64,000 nt of DNA, taken from Patescibacteria group bacterium. Lineage in GTDB: Bacteria; Patescibacteriota; Doudnabacteria; UBA920. A model generated the notes under the pieces. The model saw only the letters and a program-made list of their open reading frames with translations, did no database searches and was not told the DNA's origin. Of this stretch, positions 7,843-41,726 are shown piece by piece. Both the position numbers and the translations under genes were made by a program. Every line of letters begins with the position of its first letter. Position 1 is the first letter of the stretch. The stretch is taken from contig DAIMCS010000002.1 of the NCBI GenBank assembly GCA_036726225.1, positions 123,743-187,742 on the forward strand, read 5' to 3'.

Positions 7843-9699
7843 ATGCTCAAAAGAAAAATTTTAAAATTTATAAGCGCCGTAATATTATTCAGCTTCCCGC
7901 TGGCCGCGTTGGCTATGCCGGTTGACCCAAATTTTAACCCGGCCAAACTCATTGACGACAAAGTTTTTTCCGACATTCAAACTTTTGGCGGTCCGGAAGG
8001 CGTGCAGAAATTTTTGGAAAGTAAAAATTCGGTTTTGGCAAACACCTCCGCGGATTTTTTGGTTAAGCTCAAAGAGCCGCAGGCTACCCAACTAAAAGAA
8101 GGCCTGGAAGACCCGCAGCCAAATTTAGGCAGGCTTAGGACAGCTGCGGAGCTTATTTGGGACGCCTCCAGGCAAAGCGGGCTTAACCCCCAGGTACTCC
8201 TGGTGACTTTAAACAAAGAGCAGGGGTTAATTACTTCTGCCGGGGATTTTTCCCAAAGCCAGCTGCAAAAAGCTTTAGACAGATCTATGGGTTTTGATTG
8301 TCCGGACGGCGGAGGCTGCGGTAGTTTGTTTCCGGGTTTTTATTATCAATTATTTGGGAATTTTGACTCCGAAGGCAACCGTTATTTAGGCGCGGCCAAA
8401 TCTTTAATGAAATCTTTTACCACAGACGGCGGGCGGGGACCGATTATTGACGGGCGTACCGCAAAGGTAGGCGAGACAATAGTCTTGGGCAACACTTTAG
8501 GCGGCTATGAAAATATTTTGCCTTCGCAGTCGGTGTGGCTGACCAATAATGCAACCGCCGCGCTTTACCGGTATACTCCGCATGTTTTTAACGGCAATTA
8601 CAATTTTTGGAAATTTTTCCAGGCGTGGTTTAAATATCCCAACGGCACGCTGCTTAAAATGGCGAGCTCCGGGGAAACATACATTATCCAAAACGGACTT
8701 AAAGCTTTTGTCCCGCAATTCGTGGCAGCTGCCAGAGGGCTTGATTTAAACAGCACCGTTATAATTTCGCCTACGGAATACGAAAGTTATGTAACAGACA
8801 AGCCGTTGGGGCCGGAAAATAACACCATTGTGCAGCTGCCGGGCCAAAACGAGAAATACGTATTTATAGACAACGTCAGGCACTTGGCGTCAGATTTGGT
8901 AATTAAGCAAAGAGGTTTGGATCCTAAAAAAGTTTTGAGCATTTTGCCGGACGAAGCCGCAATTTTTGAAGCCGGCAGTGTTTTGCCTCCCAAAGACGGC
9001 ACAGTTATCCGCGGCACAACTAACCAGGCAGTATTTTTGGTTAAAGACGGCAAAATTAAAATGTTCAGCGCTTACACATTTGCCCAAAATAAAATTACCA
9101 AAAAAGATATTATAACTGTTCCGGATTCCGAAATTGGCACTTATTCCCAAAGCGGTTTTGTAGCACCGCTCGACGGCAGCCTGGTTAAATCGGCAAACGA
9201 TAGCACAGTTTATTTAGTCCAAAGCTCACTTAAGCAGCCGCTGCTCGGCGAGATTTTCAAGAACCGCGGCTTAAGCTTTAAAAAAGTGGCAATAATTTCA
9301 TCTGACGAGTTAAATGCTCTGCCTATGGGCGGGTTGGCTACGCCTAAAGAGCTTACCTACTTTGCTGCCGATTCAAAGACCGGGCCTTTGTATATTTTTA
9401 AAGAAGGTTCAGTGCACAGCATCTCCAGTTTTGTTGCCAAACAACGCGGCATTACCCCGGATTATATATTTAGCACCAGCGCAATAAATTTTTGGATTGT
9501 GGGAATTCCCATCCCGCCTAAAGACAACACCATTGTAAAAGGCGATACTGACAATACAGTCTATCTTGTTTTAAAAGGCCAGTTAAGGCCTTTAACCTAC
9601 CAAGCTTTCACCAACCGAAAAATTACGTCCAAGAAAATTGTGAGTTTGCCACAGGCCGAAGTTGACGCTTACGCCAAAGGGGAGATAATCACCAAGTAG
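7843..9699 (+). CDS. Secreted hypothetical protein with six C-terminal ~55-aa repeats of the same family as the S8 protease tail (ORF open from 7762)
   Basis: Signal peptide MLKRKILKFISAVILFSFPLAALA. Repeats DGTVIRGTTNQAVFLVKDGKIKMFS / DGSLVKSANDSTVYLVQSSLKQPL / DNTIVKGDTDNTVYLVLKGQLRPL. Confidence 0.75.
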   Translation: MLKRKILKFISAVILFSFPLAALAMPVDPNFNPAKLIDDKVFSDIQTFGGPEGVQKFLESKNSVLANTSADFLVKLKEPQATQLKEGLEDPQPNLGRLRTAAELIWDASRQSGLNPQVLLVTLNKEQGLITSAGDFSQSQLQKALDRSMGFDCPDGGGCGSLFPGFYYQLFGNFDSEGNRYLGAAKSLMKSFTTDGGRGPIIDGRTAKVGETIVLGNTLGGYENILPSQSVWLTNNATAALYRYTPHVFNGNYNFWKFFQAWFKYPNGTLLKMASSGETYIIQNGLKAFVPQFVAAARGLDLNSTVIISPTEYESYVTDKPLGPENNTIVQLPGQNEKYVFIDNVRHLASDLVIKQRGLDPKKVLSILPDEAAIFEAGSVLPPKDGTVIRGTTNQAVFLVKDGKIKMFSAYTFAQNKITKKDIITVPDSEIGTYSQSGFVAPLDGSLVKSANDSTVYLVQSSLKQPLLGEIFKNRGLSFKKVAIISSDELNALPMGGLATPKELTYFAADSKTGPLYIFKEGSVHSISSFVAKQRGITPDYIFSTSAINFWIVGIPIPPKDNTIVKGDTDNTVYLVLKGQLRPLTYQAFTNRKITSKKIVSLPQAEVDAYAKGEIITK

Positions 9700-29168: not shown

Positions 29169-29512
29169 TGCTTTAAGCAAACTCGTAAGCCGAATTCTGT
29201 TTCTAAATAATCATCTATCTGGTCACGTTATTGCTAACGTGATCAAGCAACCTACCTAATTTGGTCTTGCACTCAAGTAAGGATTTGGCCGTTTCACCTT
29301 TAATGTTTCCATCAAAGCTAATCTCTTGCGAGATCCTTGGCGTCTTTCGTACCAAGCGTCTCTGTTCGCACCTCTAGGATTACTCCCGACGGGAATTACC
29401 CGCTACCAGTTTTGATAACTCATATGAGGCTATCAAATAAGTGTTCGGACTTTCCTCCCCAACCGGCATCTTGCGATGCCAATTAAAGCGATTATTCGGT
29501 TTGCTTAAAGCC
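29169..29512 (-). ncRNA. rnpB: RNase P RNA, bacterial type A
   Basis: The minus-strand reading contains GGGGAGGAAAGTCCG (P4 / CR-I), AAAGGTGAAACGGCC (GGUGAAA region) and ACAGAATTCGGCTTACGAG (ACAGAAnCCGGCUUA, CR-V). The P1 stem is gctttaagcaaac / gtttgcttaaagc. Length ~344 nt. Confidence 0.85.
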
Positions 29513-31196: not shown

Positions 31197-32270
31197 ATGA
31201 GGATCGCATTAGCACATGATTCCCTTACTCAAATGGGCGGGGCGGAAAGAGTGGTAGATGCATTACACGAACTTTTTCCAAACGCGCCTGTTTTTACATT
31301 GGTCTTTGACCCAAAGTTTAAAGAAAAGTATAAAGATTGGGACATTCAAACTTCACCACTACAGTCGCTGTACTTGGTTTTAGGAAAACTGCAATATTGT
31401 TTGCCGCTAATCCCGTGGGCGGTGGACCAGCTAAACTTTAGCGGCTACGATTTAGTTATTTCCTCCAGCTCGGGTTTTGTAAAAAATATCCGTGTGCCAA
31501 AAAATTGTGTGCATATAAATTATTGTCACACCCCAACCAGATTTTTGTGGAGCGATAACGATTATGTCAAACAGGAAGTAAATTTTTTCCTAAGGCCTTT
31601 TGTAAAAGTTTTTTTATCTAAAATGCGGAAGTGGGATTTAATTGGCGCCAAAAGGGTAACGCATTTTATTGCCAATTCAAAAGAAGTCCAGGATAGAATC
31701 CAAAAATATTATCAGCGTACTAGTACGCTGATATACCCGTTTGTGGATTCAAAATTTTGGAATTCGACAACGCCTAAGGGCGATTACTTCTTACTTGCAG
31801 GCAGGCTACATCCCCATAAAAAAAATGACCTTATTGTGGAAGTTTTTAATGACCTAAATATCCCGCTCCACGTTGTGGGTACAGGGAGGCAAGAGGGTTA
31901 TTTGAAGTCGATTGCTAAGCAAAATATTAGCTTTTTGGGCAGAATAAGCGACGAAGCGCTTAGGGATGAGTATAGCGCTGCTTTAGGGTTTATTTACCCA
32001 CAAATTGAAGATTTTGGCCTTATGCCACTGGAAGCCGCCGGCTGCGGCACAGCCACACTGGCTTACGGTGAGGGCGGCGCTAAAGAGACTGTTCTGCCCG
32101 GGGTAACCGGGGAGCTGTTTGACTCTTACAATGAGGAGAAAATTAAGCAGATGGTTTTGTCTTGGGATGCAAAAAAATATCGAACGGATGACTTAAAAAA
32201 CCAGGCAGAGAAATTTAGTAAAGAAAAATTTAAAAGTGAAATGTTAAATTTTGTAAAATCCCATGTCTGA
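31197..32270 (+). CDS. Family 4 glycosyltransferase; contains the 22-bp palindrome ATCAGCGTACTAGTACGCTGAT at 31720-31741
   Basis: GT-B C-terminal motif LAGRLHPHKKNDL...EDFGLMPLEAAGCGTATLAYGEGGAKETV. Confidence 0.85.
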   Translation: MRIALAHDSLTQMGGAERVVDALHELFPNAPVFTLVFDPKFKEKYKDWDIQTSPLQSLYLVLGKLQYCLPLIPWAVDQLNFSGYDLVISSSSGFVKNIRVPKNCVHINYCHTPTRFLWSDNDYVKQEVNFFLRPFVKVFLSKMRKWDLIGAKRVTHFIANSKEVQDRIQKYYQRTSTLIYPFVDSKFWNSTTPKGDYFLLAGRLHPHKKNDLIVEVFNDLNIPLHVVGTGRQEGYLKSIAKQNISFLGRISDEALRDEYSAALGFIYPQIEDFGLMPLEAAGCGTATLAYGEGGAKETVLPGVTGELFDSYNEEKIKQMVLSWDAKKYRTDDLKNQAEKFSKEKFKSEMLNFVKSHV

Positions 32271-39406: not shown

Positions 39407-39727
39407 ATGAACATAAACATCAAAGCGACAAACACTACATTAACTCCGTCTATTAGGGGCTTTATTGAAGAAAAACTGGAAAGCTTGGCAAAATTTATTA
39501 AAGAAGAAGACAAAATCCGCGTAGAAATAGAAGTGGACAAAAAACGCACTGGTGAGGCTCGTTTTAGGGCGGAAATAGACATTCAACCCCGCGGGCATTA
39601 CGCAGAGGCAAGGGGAGTGGATGAATACGCGGCAATAGATTTAGTTTTGCCAAAAATTAAAGAGCAGCTAACCCGAAAAAAGGACAAGGAAGTCAGCCTA
39701 AGAAGGAGAAGAACAAAGCTTAGGTAA
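39407..39727 (+). CDS. hpf: Ribosome hibernation promoting factor / ribosome-associated inhibitor A
   Basis: [35 protein letters not shown]...VEIEVD...[26 protein letters not shown]. Confidence 0.85.
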
Positions 39728-39743
39728 TAAGGGATAATTTACT

Positions 39744-39772
39744 TGACAAAGCCAGTTTTAGGATATAAAATA
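39744..39772 (+). promoter_or_regulatory. Canonical sigma70-type promoter TTGACA-N17-TAAAAT at the left edge of the GC-rich islet
   Basis: ttacTTGACAaagccagttttaggataTAAAAT. Confidence 0.55.
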
Positions 39773-39785
39773 ATTTTAGTGAAAA

Positions 39786-39935
39786 AAATACTCAAAATTT
39801 CTAATGGGATTGGTTTTTGGTTTTATTTTACTCCGGCAGTTGAGCCCGGAAATTTTGAGTTGATTACCAAGTAGTTTTGTAAAATAATCGACTTTAAATC
39901 TCCGGCCTCAACGAGGCCGGTTTTGTTTTTTGCAG
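39786..39935 (+). ncRNA. Candidate structured leader or small RNA (promoter to intrinsic terminator, ~150 nt) upstream of the strong-SD Cys-rich ORF
   Basis: Long-range complementarity actcaaaatttc / gaaattttgagt. Terminal hairpin ccggcctcaacgaggccgg plus T7 at 39902-39933. The RBS of the next ORF lies 40 nt downstream. Confidence 0.35.
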
Positions 39936-39986
39936 TTTTCCAAATCGCTGTGTGGATGTGAGCAAAACAAGCAAGGAGGATTGATT

Positions 39987-40259
39987 ATGGCTAACCCGTT
40001 CGATTGGCATGGAACAAGCCGCGATATGTGCGGACAAGTTTGTTATATCTTTGAAGTCAAAAACCTGTCGGGACTTCGGAAGAAAAAAAGAAGGCGTAAG
40101 CCCGCGACTTACCTCATTAAAGCCAGGACCGAAATTGGCACGAATATAAAGTTTTACTGTCGGCTTACAGCTGGCCAATGGAAAGTCTGGAGAGTTCCTA
40201 GAGGGATGCCAAACCCAAAACGGCAAGTATCTCGTGTTTCCTTTGGTGACAGCCGTTGA
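39987..40259 (+). CDS. Small basic Cys-containing hypothetical protein (90 aa)
   Basis: AGGAGG 8 nt upstream of the ATG; perfect terminator hairpin agcaggaagcgaatttacattcgcttcctgc at 40268-40298; GC and codon use differ from the surrounding genes. Confidence 0.55.
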   Translation: MANPFDWHGTSRDMCGQVCYIFEVKNLSGLRKKKRRRKPATYLIKARTEIGTNIKFYCRLTAGQWKVWRVPRGMPNPKRQVSRVSFGDSR

Positions 40260-40409
40260 AAGTGCCTAGCAGGAAGCGAATTTACATTCGCTTCCTGCGT
40301 CACAATACTAATTACTTTTTTATGAGAACAATAAACTCAAAATTATATATTTCCATTTGGTGGGTTTTGCAATTCCCGCAAAGCCGTCTTTAAGCGTGTT
40401 TAGTTACAA

Positions 40410-40446
40410 AAACATCCCGACGGCCGTCGGGATGTTTTTGTTTTGG
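40410..40446. terminator. Terminator hairpin, followed by a 15-bp palindrome GATTGTCAAACAATC (40455-40469, -35/operator-like)
   Basis: aaaacatcccgacggccgtcgggatgtttttgtttt. Confidence 0.65.
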
Positions 40447-40506
40447 CTTTTGATTGTCAAACAATCGAGAGCCAGCACAAAAGCTGGAGAAGGCAGGAGG
40501 AATATT

Positions 40507-40878
40507 ATGTCAGAGGAGATCGTCCGTTGGTGTTTTGTTCAGTTGGTATATGAGCGTTTTGTAAGACAGTTAATGGATGCCGAGGAAGAAGAAAGATTTA
40601 CAATCCATCTTTCCAGGTGTGCTTTATGCCGAAATGCCGTGGAGCAGACAGATGAGGAGCTGGCGCAAGCCAAGCTTGAAGCCGGAGAAAAAAAAGTACG
40701 CTTGCTCATTCGGCAAATTGGCAGAACGAAACACAACATGAGGAAAGTTCGCGCAATCAACGGTAAAAGGGTCTTAAAAAACAACGAAGCTAGAGAGCGA
40801 CAGATTAAAATAATGGAAGGACAACTGCTTGAAGCGGAGGCAAATATTTTTGCTTTGAGATGTAAGTATTTGCCATGA
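40507..40878 (+). CDS. Hypothetical coiled-coil protein (123 aa; ORF track start 40357 lies inside a terminator, so the AGGAGG-served ATG at 40507 is used)
   Basis: ggcAGGAGGaatattATG; terminator aagacagg...ccctgtcttatttttt after the stop. Confidence 0.55.
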   Translation: MSEEIVRWCFVQLVYERFVRQLMDAEEEERFTIHLSRCALCRNAVEQTDEELAQAKLEAGEKKVRLLIRQIGRTKHNMRKVRAINGKRVLKNNEARERQIKIMEGQLLEAEANIFALRCKYLP

Positions 40879-40910
40879 TCTCAACTAATAAGACAGGATT
40901 TGTCCCTGTC

Positions 40911-41204
40911 TTATTTTTTGTAATATTTTTTCCAAATAGTATTAAAGCCGCCGTTTTTGTTAAGCAGTTCTTTCACGCCTCTGTTTATGGTTGCCACTCC
41001 TACTTTTAGGCGTTTGGCAATTTCGCGATGGGGGATTTTTGCTTTAAGCATTTTAACTATTTGCCAGCGTACCGCCATTTCAGAATATTCTGCATGCGAA
41101 AGCAGATCGAACAAAAATTCGCGTAAAAGTTTTTTATCCCGCTCTTTTGAAATTTTACCAATAAGCTCCTCCAGCTCTACTCCGTATTCGTGTTTATACT
41201 TCAT
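40911..41204 (-). CDS. TrpR-like YerC/YecD family DNA-binding protein
   Basis: 97 aa, ...EMAVRWQIVKMLKAKIPHREIAKRLKVGVATINRGVKEL... helix-turn-helix typical of YerC/YecD. Confidence 0.65.
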   Translation of the reverse strand: MKYKHEYGVELEELIGKISKERDKKLLREFLFDLLSHAEYSEMAVRWQIVKMLKAKIPHREIAKRLKVGVATINRGVKELLNKNGGFNTIWKKYYKK

Positions 41205-41217
41205 TTTGTATTGCGTG

Positions 41218-41322
41218 TTAGCGTACTAGTACAGTAGCACGCAGCAGGGTTTTATTTCAAGCTGTGGATAAAAATTATTAAAATAAATAAAATTCGATGT
41301 TTCAGCGTACTAGTACGCTATT
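41218..41322. promoter_or_regulatory. Divergent control region with two copies of the palindromic core AGCGTACTAGTAC(GCT)
   Basis: gttAGCGTACTAGTACagtagcacgc (41218-41243) and ttCAGCGTACTAGTACGCTattgac (41303-41327). A perfect 22-bp version lies inside the GT4 gene at 31720-31741. Confidence 0.5.
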
Positions 41323-41394
41323 GACTAAAGGAATTGGTTCAATGTACGCTAAGTGAAGTTCGTGCAAAAAAATACACCAGTAAGGAGGAAGTAA

Positions 41395-41604
41395 GTGACG
41401 CAGGAAGCTGCTCGTTTGGATACTTGCCCTCAAGGAACATCTTTTTGCTATTGGATGGAACAAAAATCCAGGAGCGTTGAAGGCTCGGTGATTGTGTTTT
41501 GTTCCACCTGTGACAAGGCCAGATGCAAAGAATGCTGGAAACCGGCGGTCCAAGTTGAGGGAACTGACAAATACCGGTGTCCGGACTTATGTAAGGCAAG
41601 CTAG
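41395..41604 (+). CDS. Small Cys-rich (8 Cys) hypothetical protein, GTG start
   Basis: AAGGAGG 7 nt upstream; CxxxxxxC...CxxC...CxxC...CxxxC pattern; two terminator hairpins downstream (41618-41640; 41655-41712). Confidence 0.5.
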   Translation: MTQEAARLDTCPQGTSFCYWMEQKSRSVEGSVIVFCSTCDKARCKECWKPAVQVEGTDKYRCPDLCKAS

Positions 41605-41726
41605 CGGCAAAATCGCCCGGGCTGAGAGCAATCTCAGCCTGTCTTTTATTTGAAAATAAAAATAACCGTGAACGGAATGCAAGCAGTTGGCTGCTCTTTT
41701 CCGTTCACGGTTTTTGCTTTTGGGCT

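Follow-up and report, generated by a model that had tools for sequence, protein, structure and literature searches.

The closest described counterparts of the locus reported here are repressors of the TrpR fold family and the tryptophan attenuators associated with them. The published TrpR motif is TGTAcTnGTnnACnAgTACA or TGTACTnGTnnACnAGTACA, with GNACT half-sites 8 bp apart (PMC9413887). YerC of Bacillus subtilis is the histidine repressor HisR, with the motif cacTTTAn6TAAAgtg; the TrpR DNA contacts R69, I79 and T83 and most of the Trp contacts are replaced in this protein, with Tyr, Thr and Ser at the positions that differ (PMC9413887). In Chlamydia trachomatis, the trpRBA operon has a Trp-dependent TrpR acting on its own promoter and a TrpL-type leader between trpR and trpB (PMC7755916). 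Our analysis of a Doudnabacteria genome revealed a locus that shares elements with each of these systems. Its best explanation, which we hold with considerable confidence, is a pair of TrpR-family operators (S1 and S2) that would mediate autoregulation and repression of a divergent transcript, with tryptophan as the likely corepressor.

The window, that is, the whole 64,000-nucleotide stretch of DNA analysed, contains the features listed below; scores in bits were obtained with a position weight matrix (PWM) built from promoter sites of other genomes only, and L numbers designate individual loci or contigs throughout.

31711-31732: site S3, ATCAGCGTACTAGTACGCTGAT, a perfect 22-bp palindrome over the GT4a codons for YQRTSTL; PWM 27.8 bits
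40322-40393, + strand: WW leader ORF, MRTINSKLYISIWWVLQFPQSRL and stop codon; WW codons 40358-40363, hairpin 40363-40385, terminator 40406-40441 followed by a T-run
40507-40878, + strand: orphan ORF of 123 aa (orf123), downstream of the WW leader
40911-41204, - strand: TrpR-family regulator gene, 97 aa (Pfam Trp_repressor, PF01371)
41218-41237: candidate operator S1, TTAGCGTACTAGTACAGTAG, regulator-proximal, over the predicted -10 and transcription start of the regulator promoter; PWM 30.0 bits
41260-41231, - strand: predicted regulator promoter, from alignment with relatives; -35 TTGAAA 41260-41255, 18-nt spacer, -10 TACTGT 41236-41231
41263-41271, - strand: perfect DnaA-box sequence TTATCCACA, just upstream of the regulator -35 and between S1 and S2
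41302-41321: candidate operator S2, TCAGCGTACTAGTACGCTAT, distal, its end falling on the -35 of the divergent promoter; PWM 28.0 bits
41321-41350, + strand: predicted divergent promoter, from positional homology with relatives; -35 TTGACT 41321-41326, 18-nt spacer, -10 TACGCT 41345-41350
41395-41604, + strand: orphan 8-Cys ORF of 69 aa, the gene under S2; Shine-Dalgarno (SD) sequence AAGGAGG 41382-41388, GTG start, terminator 41618-41641

A preliminary description of this DNA had placed two related palindromes between the regulator gene on the - strand and the 8-Cys gene on the + strand, and both are present as described: the 13-mer AGCGTACTAGTAC occurs on the + strand in exact copies at 41220-41232 and 41304-41316. 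S2 is a perfect 16-bp palindrome (AGCGTACTAGTACGCT, 41304-41319), and S1 (AGCGTACTAGTACAGT, 41220-41235) an imperfect one of the same length, enclosed by a 32-bp imperfect palindrome (41212-41243) and starting 16 nt upstream of the regulator ATG (41204, - strand); the two centres lie 84 bp apart. At two or fewer mismatches the 13-mer had six matches on both strands of the window, against 0.41 expected, a number reached in none of 100 shuffles. S1, S2 and S3 were the only motif matches in the 64 kb, the next best position scoring -0.3 bits and the maximum in shuffles being 18.8 bits. The third site lies in a GT4a gene (31197-32270; Pfam Glycos_transf_1/Glyco_transf_4); it had been reported as a perfect 22-bp copy inside a GT4 gene, which is correct, but its position had been given as 31720-31741, about 9 nt off.

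The sites were compared with the trp, trpR and aroH operators of Escherichia coli, with which they share the GTACT/AGTAC and CTAG elements, in the same 8-bp register as the operators of TrpR proper. In the symmetrised matrix (34 sites), which reads yTAn-yGTA-CTAG-TACr-nTAr, TA is conserved at +8/+9 and T occupies +8 in 108 of 122 half-sites, so that CTAG-like elements repeat every 8 bp; the array is perfect in one relative (L040, CTAG-TGTA-CTAG-TACA-CTAG), and a second exact CTAG at +/-8 is found in several sites. E. coli trpO (GAACTAGTTAACTAGTACGCAAG; the query sequence was 100% identical in more than 5,000 genomes) has ACTAGTACGC in common with S2, and the sites here correspond to the outer hexamers of the TrpR motif TGTACTnGTnnACnAGTACA, brought together. 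They differ from the E. coli operators in that the axis of symmetry falls on one CTAG instead of between two, and in that TGTACT and AGTACA abut without the 8-bp spacer. Lawson and Carey reportedly found in 1993 that tandemly bound TrpR dimers are offset by 8 bp, and given such binding, one central CTAG with two weaker flanking elements would fit two overlapping dimers. The operator variants, furthermore, change together with the residue at the position of Ile79, a DNA contact in TrpR: loci with GCACTAGTGC (L008, L016, L019; GCAC-type) have Met or Pro at this position and I/V in helix 1, and the locus with GTGCTAGCAC (L013; GTGC-type) has Thr. This co-variation is supportive and not decisive, since the loci may be related by descent.

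The regulator belongs to the same Pfam family as E. coli TrpR (E 7e-18, 64.9 bits, gathering cutoff 27). TrpR was also its best-scoring NCBIfam family (TIGR01321 equivalog), but at 39.7 bits the match was below the cutoff of 67.25, as was that to yecD_yerC (TIGR02531; 27 bits, cutoff 42.2). In a BLASTP alignment with E. coli TrpR (reference sequence 100% identical to PDB 3wrp), residues 39-80 corresponded to 47-89, with R54, R69, A80, T81, R84 and G85 kept and I79 changed to V. At the DNA-contact positions R69, I79, A80, T81, T83 and R84 (list taken from PMC9413887), the window protein has R, V, A, T, N, R and the family consensus R, V, A, T, T, R; the recognition helix reads GVATINRG here and GIATITRG in E. 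coli. The family consensus L-S-P-x-E...RWQIV...VSVATVTRGS follows that of TrpR (L-T-P-D-E...RVRIV...AGIATITRGS), and the pocket residues R54, T81, R84, G85 and L-[ST]-P align. The likeness to HisR (PMC9413887) is of another kind: a length of about 95-100 aa, the same fold family and frequent autoregulation through a 20-bp palindrome, with the family profile scoring 34-36 bits on structures of the YerC/HisR type (closest 3frw, 3kor and 3g1c) and 29 bits on E. coli TrpR. Scaffold and length are therefore nearer the YerC type, whereas the HisR motif TTTA-N6-TAAA, its his-gene targets and its His corepressor do not apply here, both operator and targets being different. Taken together, the profile scores and the kept contact and pocket residues argue that the regulator combines the scaffold of a YerC-like protein with a reading head and pocket of the TrpR type. 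In the earlier label of a YerC/TrpR-like regulator, the assignment to the TrpR family stands by the Pfam match, but the reference to YerC does not carry over, as YerC is HisR, with another motif, and both the recognition helix and the operator here are TrpR-like.

Homologous regulator loci (23, with 45-73% identity) were found in Doudnabacteria and other Patescibacteria MAGs, in the shared order murB-hpf-[regulator]-variable island-secA. Beyond the window, about 25 genomes have the two-site layout upstream of homologues of the regulator (45-75% identity), with its position constant with respect to both divergent promoters, and metagenome matches to the motif lie beside TrpR-like genes, trpB2 and trpB. 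In nearly all relatives the regulator ATG is preceded at 25-45 nt by a proximal palindrome of the GTACTAGTAC type, with a distal one some 110-140 nt upstream, and additional 20-kb loci showed the same arrangement. When the loci were aligned on CTAG, the distal GTACTAGTAC core preceded the TTGACA of the divergent promoter (TTGACA, 17-18 nt, TATnAT) by 4-5 nt in 20 of 22 relatives; at the proximal site, the left outer element coincides with TAnnGT, which on the regulator strand follows TTGAAA/TTGACC after 17-18 nt. A consensus promoter scan of the window called neither of the two predicted promoters, the -10 elements of which are weak, and gave an alternative + strand promoter (TGGATA/TAAAAT, 41265-41293) upstream of S2; use of that promoter would place S2 over the transcription start and would imply repression as well. 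Spacing between the two sites varies from 72 to 108 bp across genomes, and on this ground a constant helical phase or a DNA loop between them was rejected. Contigs of the same species are 99.9-100% identical, so they carry no information on population variation in the operators. The conserved layout, the fixed promoter geometry, the co-variation of operator and recognition residue and the metagenome scan all support the paired operators and the autoregulation proposed in the preliminary description, and in our view both sites very likely serve the adjacent regulator as operators.

The perfect DnaA-box sequence between the two operators is a further conserved component and a difference from the E. 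coli TrpR system, as are the targets in the window, which are orphan ORFs and an intragenic site. TTATCCACA occurs three times in the window (0.7 expected). Within 200 nt upstream of the regulator it was present, exact and in sense orientation, in 24 of 46 loci and with one mismatch in five more, at 1-13 nt upstream of the regulator -35 and usually 65-90 nt before the ATG; it was also found in lineages with only 42-48% identity (L049, L069 at 2630-2638, and L098). Such exactness and common orientation across loci, against a chance expectation of about 7e-4 per locus, suggest that DnaA co-regulates the regulator promoter, and we flag the strong conservation of this box in these promoters. A replication origin was considered and rejected, as there is a single DnaA box only.

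In most relatives the divergent promoter would drive a Trp-rich leader in place of the 8-Cys ORF. Its -10 is followed after 6-9 nt by an ORF of 16-33 codons with WW, WxW or a single W (e.g., MSKAVIKYTVSAWWTLPSFAKFVV and MNSNMVKNTQVWWQALRRRAEVVFAV; 19 such leaders in total), so placed that the leader mRNA would be leaderless or nearly so, with a hairpin directly after the Trp codons and then an intrinsic terminator. The combination of a tandem-Trp-codon ORF with an intrinsic terminator, characteristic of trpL, was present here, including in the window (40322-40450). We simulated folding with the RNA masked either through the Trp codons plus 12 nt or through the stop codon. With the Trp codons masked, about 10 of 17 leaders changed their minimum free energy (MFE) fold, giving up the hairpin and terminator for an antiterminator in which CGCAAAGNC pairs with GNCTTTGCG of the terminator; masking through the stop codon restored the terminator fold. 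In an alignment of 18 sequences, pairing reached 89% in the hairpin and terminator and 83% in the antiterminator, and slid controls did not exceed 54% in either case. Nine pairs of the hairpin and terminator showed double changes, which none of 500 shuffles reached; covariation in the antiterminator was weaker. The predicted structure switching and the covariation support an attenuator in the relatives. As in E. coli trpL, there would be a short tandem-Trp ORF, a hairpin directly after it, a terminator and a mutually exclusive antiterminator, and attenuation would be combined with TrpR-like repression of the same promoter. The differences are that the mRNA is leaderless or nearly so, that sequence and Rfam similarity to trpL are absent, and that the antiterminator pairs with the terminator loop and the first bases of the 3' arm. 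Rfam covariance models gave no match to Trp_leader or any other relevant family in the window or in 16 loci, and an E-value scan of 39700-41700 returned noise.

The window's own copy departs from this scheme. Its WW leader lies on the other side of the regulator, convergent with it, and its promoter has no operator; by its layout it appears homologous to the element driven by S2-type promoters in relatives. Its transcript is predicted to start at the ATG (40322) and to end at 40442-40450. MFE folding predicted no antiterminator for this leader, with only a 6-bp GCCGTC/GACGGC alternative, a further difference from trpL. The 8-Cys ORF, orf123, orf90, orf84 and orf67 had no Pfam or NCBIfam match and no tblastn match in the 23 relatives, and the 8-Cys ORF and orf123 had no homologue but themselves among 5.8 billion proteins. 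No trp gene, trpB2 included, and no serK-like gene was found in the 64-kb window. Within the locus, conservation covers the regulator, both operators, the DnaA box and the leader; the small ORFs are specific to individual lineages.

Several other elements were observed near the WW leader. A strong promoter (TTGACA-17-TAAAAT, 11 of 12 consensus matches) lies in the segment 39743-39920 on the + strand and is followed by a possible leaderless, aromatic-rich GTG ORF (..GIGFWFYFTP.., 39779-39874), by a stretch at 39832-39850 capable of base-pairing with the 5' arm of a terminator at 39902-39920, and, after this terminator, by an orphan 90-aa ORF (39987-40259, + strand, SD AGGAGG); this region may be a second attenuator, of ambiguous predicted folding. 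A palindrome with 11-bp arms (CAGGAAGCGAA-TTTACA-TTCGCTTCCTG, 40269-40298), the loop of which holds the predicted -35 of the WW-leader promoter, could terminate the upstream ORF or bind another factor. In five independent assemblies of the same species the contig ends inside the WW leader or its terminator (L027-L029 at 40412; L031 and L032 at 40325/40329), a possible sign of a repeat or of a junction that varies between strains. Between the leader terminator and the next ORF, relatives (e.g., L004/L039, L011, L013, L015 and L019) conserve an element CCAGCGCAAA..GGCGG..GCGCTGG..CCGCC..GGAG-ATG, which looks like an H-type pseudoknot or an SD-sequestering structure ahead of the downstream ORFs and had no match in Rfam; in its place the window has only a simple hairpin, CCAGC-ACAAAA-GCTGG, at 40472-40488. 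Extra operators with the outer arms CCTTTTGC...GCAAAAGG occur in the interval that separates the leader terminator from the downstream genes, or beyond those genes (L003 at 1048; L004/L039 at 9670; L038 at 7509 and 9367; L006 at 2273; L013 at 1410; L040 at 8411-8428 and 9548-9573), which suggests additional repressor-controlled promoters inside the island.

The link to tryptophan rests on the WW leaders and their predicted attenuators and, in addition, on the genes found with the motif in relatives. L038/L005, L016 and L010 have, after the leader, a 135-aa SerK/SbnI-like ORF (38 bits, a weak match) and TrpB2 (708 bits, cutoff 366). This ORF, of the ParB fold, lies immediately upstream of TrpB2 in L038 (7601-9320, - strand), L016 and L010. 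SerK is a ParB-like serine kinase (PMC5120207), and TrpB2 enzymes use O-phosphoserine according to Busch 2014, as cited in PMC11917138; on these grounds the serK-like gene and TrpB2 would form a coherent indole-salvage operon, which suggests a two-step route in Doudnabacteria from serine to O-phosphoserine and, with indole, to tryptophan. An exact-pattern scan of metagenomes for TYAGCGTACTAGTACRST returned 107 stretches, and a TrpR-like gene lay within about 300 bp of the match in 11 of the 80 stretches read. One locus (L069) contains in series the DnaA box, -35, operator, regulator, a leader ending ...GRAWWWTLFWR with hairpin and terminator, and trpB2; in another (L051) a canonical trpB promoter has the operator directly behind its -10. 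As with E. coli TrpR, then, a Trp enzyme gene would be regulated in addition to the autoregulated regulator gene, here in relatives: trpB2 in L038, L016, L010, L049 and L069, and trpB in L051. The L069 series, the L051 promoter and the TrpR-like neighbours together would tie the motif and its regulator to tryptophan in several independent lineages.

The trpRBA operon of Chlamydia (PMC7755916) offers a close parallel: there, too, host-dependent bacteria have retained just the final step of tryptophan synthesis for indole salvage, and the order operator-regulator-WWW leader-trpB2 in L069 closely resembles it. Unlike in Chlamydia, however, TrpB2 stands alone, sometimes with the serK-like gene and with no trpA, the leader is divergent in most Doudnabacteria, no YtgR/iron layer is evident, and the window genome lacks trpB at the locus.

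These observations of sequence, conservation, geometry and homology are the basis on which we propose binding, effector, direction of regulation and transcription starts. Tryptophan-dependent binding would occur in tandem, probably with two overlapping repressor dimers per site. Repressor on S1 would cover the -10 TACTGT and the start of the regulator's own promoter, predicted near 41224 on the - strand, and by blocking RNA polymerase would cause negative autoregulation. At S2, the core ends 4 nt before the -35 TTGACT and the outer element overlaps the hexamer, a geometry in which bound repressor would shut off the divergent transcript. This transcript would encode the 8-Cys ORF here and, in most relatives, the leaderless tandem-Trp leader with its terminator and antiterminator, extended in several lineages by serK-like-trpB2. 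S3 in GT4a would probably be a genuine extra binding site, possibly acting as a roadblock or an auxiliary site.

Although a HisR/YerC-like protein or a sensor of some other amino acid would leave S1 and S2 as operators, it would have them report a different metabolite. The family profile does score slightly higher on 3frw, 3kor and 3g1c than on E. coli TrpR, the overall length and the C-terminal GGF tail resemble the YerC/HisR type, and the window has no trp gene. HisR, however, has the cacTTTAn6TAAAgtg motif and replaces R69, I79, T83 and the Trp-pocket residues (PMC9413887), whereas R69, T81, R84, G85, R54 and [ST]-P-x-E are TrpR-like here, the regulated leaders carry WW or WWW and no His runs, and the regulated enzymes are TrpB2 and TrpB. 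We consider such a sensor quite unlikely, and L-tryptophan the likely effector, acting as corepressor. As for the direction of control, S2 is centred at 41311.5, about 46 nt upstream of the predicted start near 41357, a position typical of activators, and might thus be an activator or dual-function site of the divergent promoter; yet nearly all relatives have the -35 hexamer overlapped by the outer element of the array, a trpB2 gene both repressed and attenuated would fit a coherent feedback logic, and the TrpR family is, to our knowledge, known only as repressors, which makes activation very unlikely. Finally, the palindromes might be RNA hairpins, terminators or copies of a dispersed palindromic repeat and not protein operators at all. 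S3 is indeed terminator-like on the - strand, with a 10-bp stem and then ATATTTTTGG, and TATCAGCGTACTAGTACGCTGATA is dispersed in unrelated contigs, one of which (L111) has three copies. Against this, S2 lies upstream of the -35 and so is not transcribed from the divergent promoter, there is no - strand gene upstream of S3 that would need a terminator, and the sites keep fixed distances to the promoter hexamers, co-occur with TrpR-like genes far above chance and co-vary with the recognition residue, so that a non-operator origin appears highly improbable. The operator of a restriction-modification controller (C-box) was also rejected, as the adjacent protein is of the TrpR family and not Xre-type.

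For S3 taken by itself the evidence is more evenly divided. The palindrome could be a by-product of Thr-Ser-Thr codons (ACT AGT ACN) or a relic without regulatory role, a reading to which we give serious weight while not preferring it. Among GT4a orthologues in seven lineages, GTACTAGTAC occurs at the same codons in three (window, CAG CGT ACT AGT ACG CTG; L036, CAG CGT ACT AGT ACA TTA; L038, GAG TGT ACT AGT ACA GTA) and is absent in the other four (L034, L039, L040 and L041); no promoter with S1- or S2-like geometry lies near S3, and no mechanism is evident. As an internal promoter or terminator, S3 was rejected, with weak consensus matches only and no - strand gene to terminate. On the other side, S3 is identical to S2 at 16 of 16 positions within its 22-bp perfect palindrome, for which the chance expectation is about 1e-5 in 64 kb, and the Arg-to-Cys change in L038 (CGT to TGT) leaves the palindrome intact. 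The site is kept in three genes that share the codon at only 29% of the columns where all three have the identical residue, and selection at the DNA level is therefore likely. Whether S3 is functional we judge to be evenly balanced; the remote target proposed in the preliminary description is accordingly a real site and a plausible target, conserved in three of seven lineages.

Copies of the motif were also seen in other settings. The operator GTTTCAGCGTACTAGTACGCTAAG lies about 19 nt upstream of map (methionine aminopeptidase, Peptidase_M24) in L047 (5380), L086 (3125) and L120 (872), at a GC content of 0.38-0.41. An extended palindrome of 24-26 bp, (A)TATCAGCGTACTAGTACGCTGATA(T), identical to S3, is intergenic in unrelated contigs with a GC content of 0.53-0.59 (L042, L048, L054, L061, L084/L090, L099 and L111), next to polA, an alcohol dehydrogenase gene and others; the copies in L111 are about 395 bp apart (2864, 3255 and 3658). 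TATCAGCGTACTAGTACGCTGATA may be either an operator of wide distribution or a dispersed palindromic element. In the window, a bacterial class A RNase P RNA (122 bits, 29170-29507, - strand) lies just upstream of the Bac_transf-GT4 cluster that contains S3; it was the only Rfam match at the gathering threshold in the window, where a tRNA/tmRNA search found none.

Patescibacteria (CPR) cannot grow alone and lack amino-acid synthesis, and we know of almost nothing that has been established about their gene regulation. A search of the literature found no paper linking TrpR or TrpB2 with this group. S1 and S2 are very probably part of a previously undescribed tryptophan-sensing circuit, conserved in these tiny symbiotic bacteria, in which the element that we did not find in the searchable literature would be the TrpR/operator variant within a trp-like combination of repression and attenuation. 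It is conceivable, if unlikely, that in the window genome the circuit has been uncoupled from tryptophan synthesis and serves as a sensor of starvation or host contact, with host tryptophan and DnaA status setting the orphan small proteins and the envelope glycosyltransferase/mur cluster linked to the operator in GT4a; the terminated leaders would then possibly act as trans sRNAs, as the terminated leader transcript rnTrpL does in Sinorhizobium. The preferred reading, a tryptophan-responsive repressor acting at S1 and S2, would provide the Patescibacteria with a regulator for which operator, effector (tryptophan) and regulon are all predicted. It would imply that the TrpR recognition code, with its GTACT/CTAG elements in an 8-bp register, is conserved far beyond the Proteobacteria, in a circuit that would combine repression and attenuation as in the E. 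coli trp operon and parallel the indole-salvage operon of Chlamydia. The locus would thereby make testable the question of whether episymbionts sense tryptophan or indole derived from their hosts.
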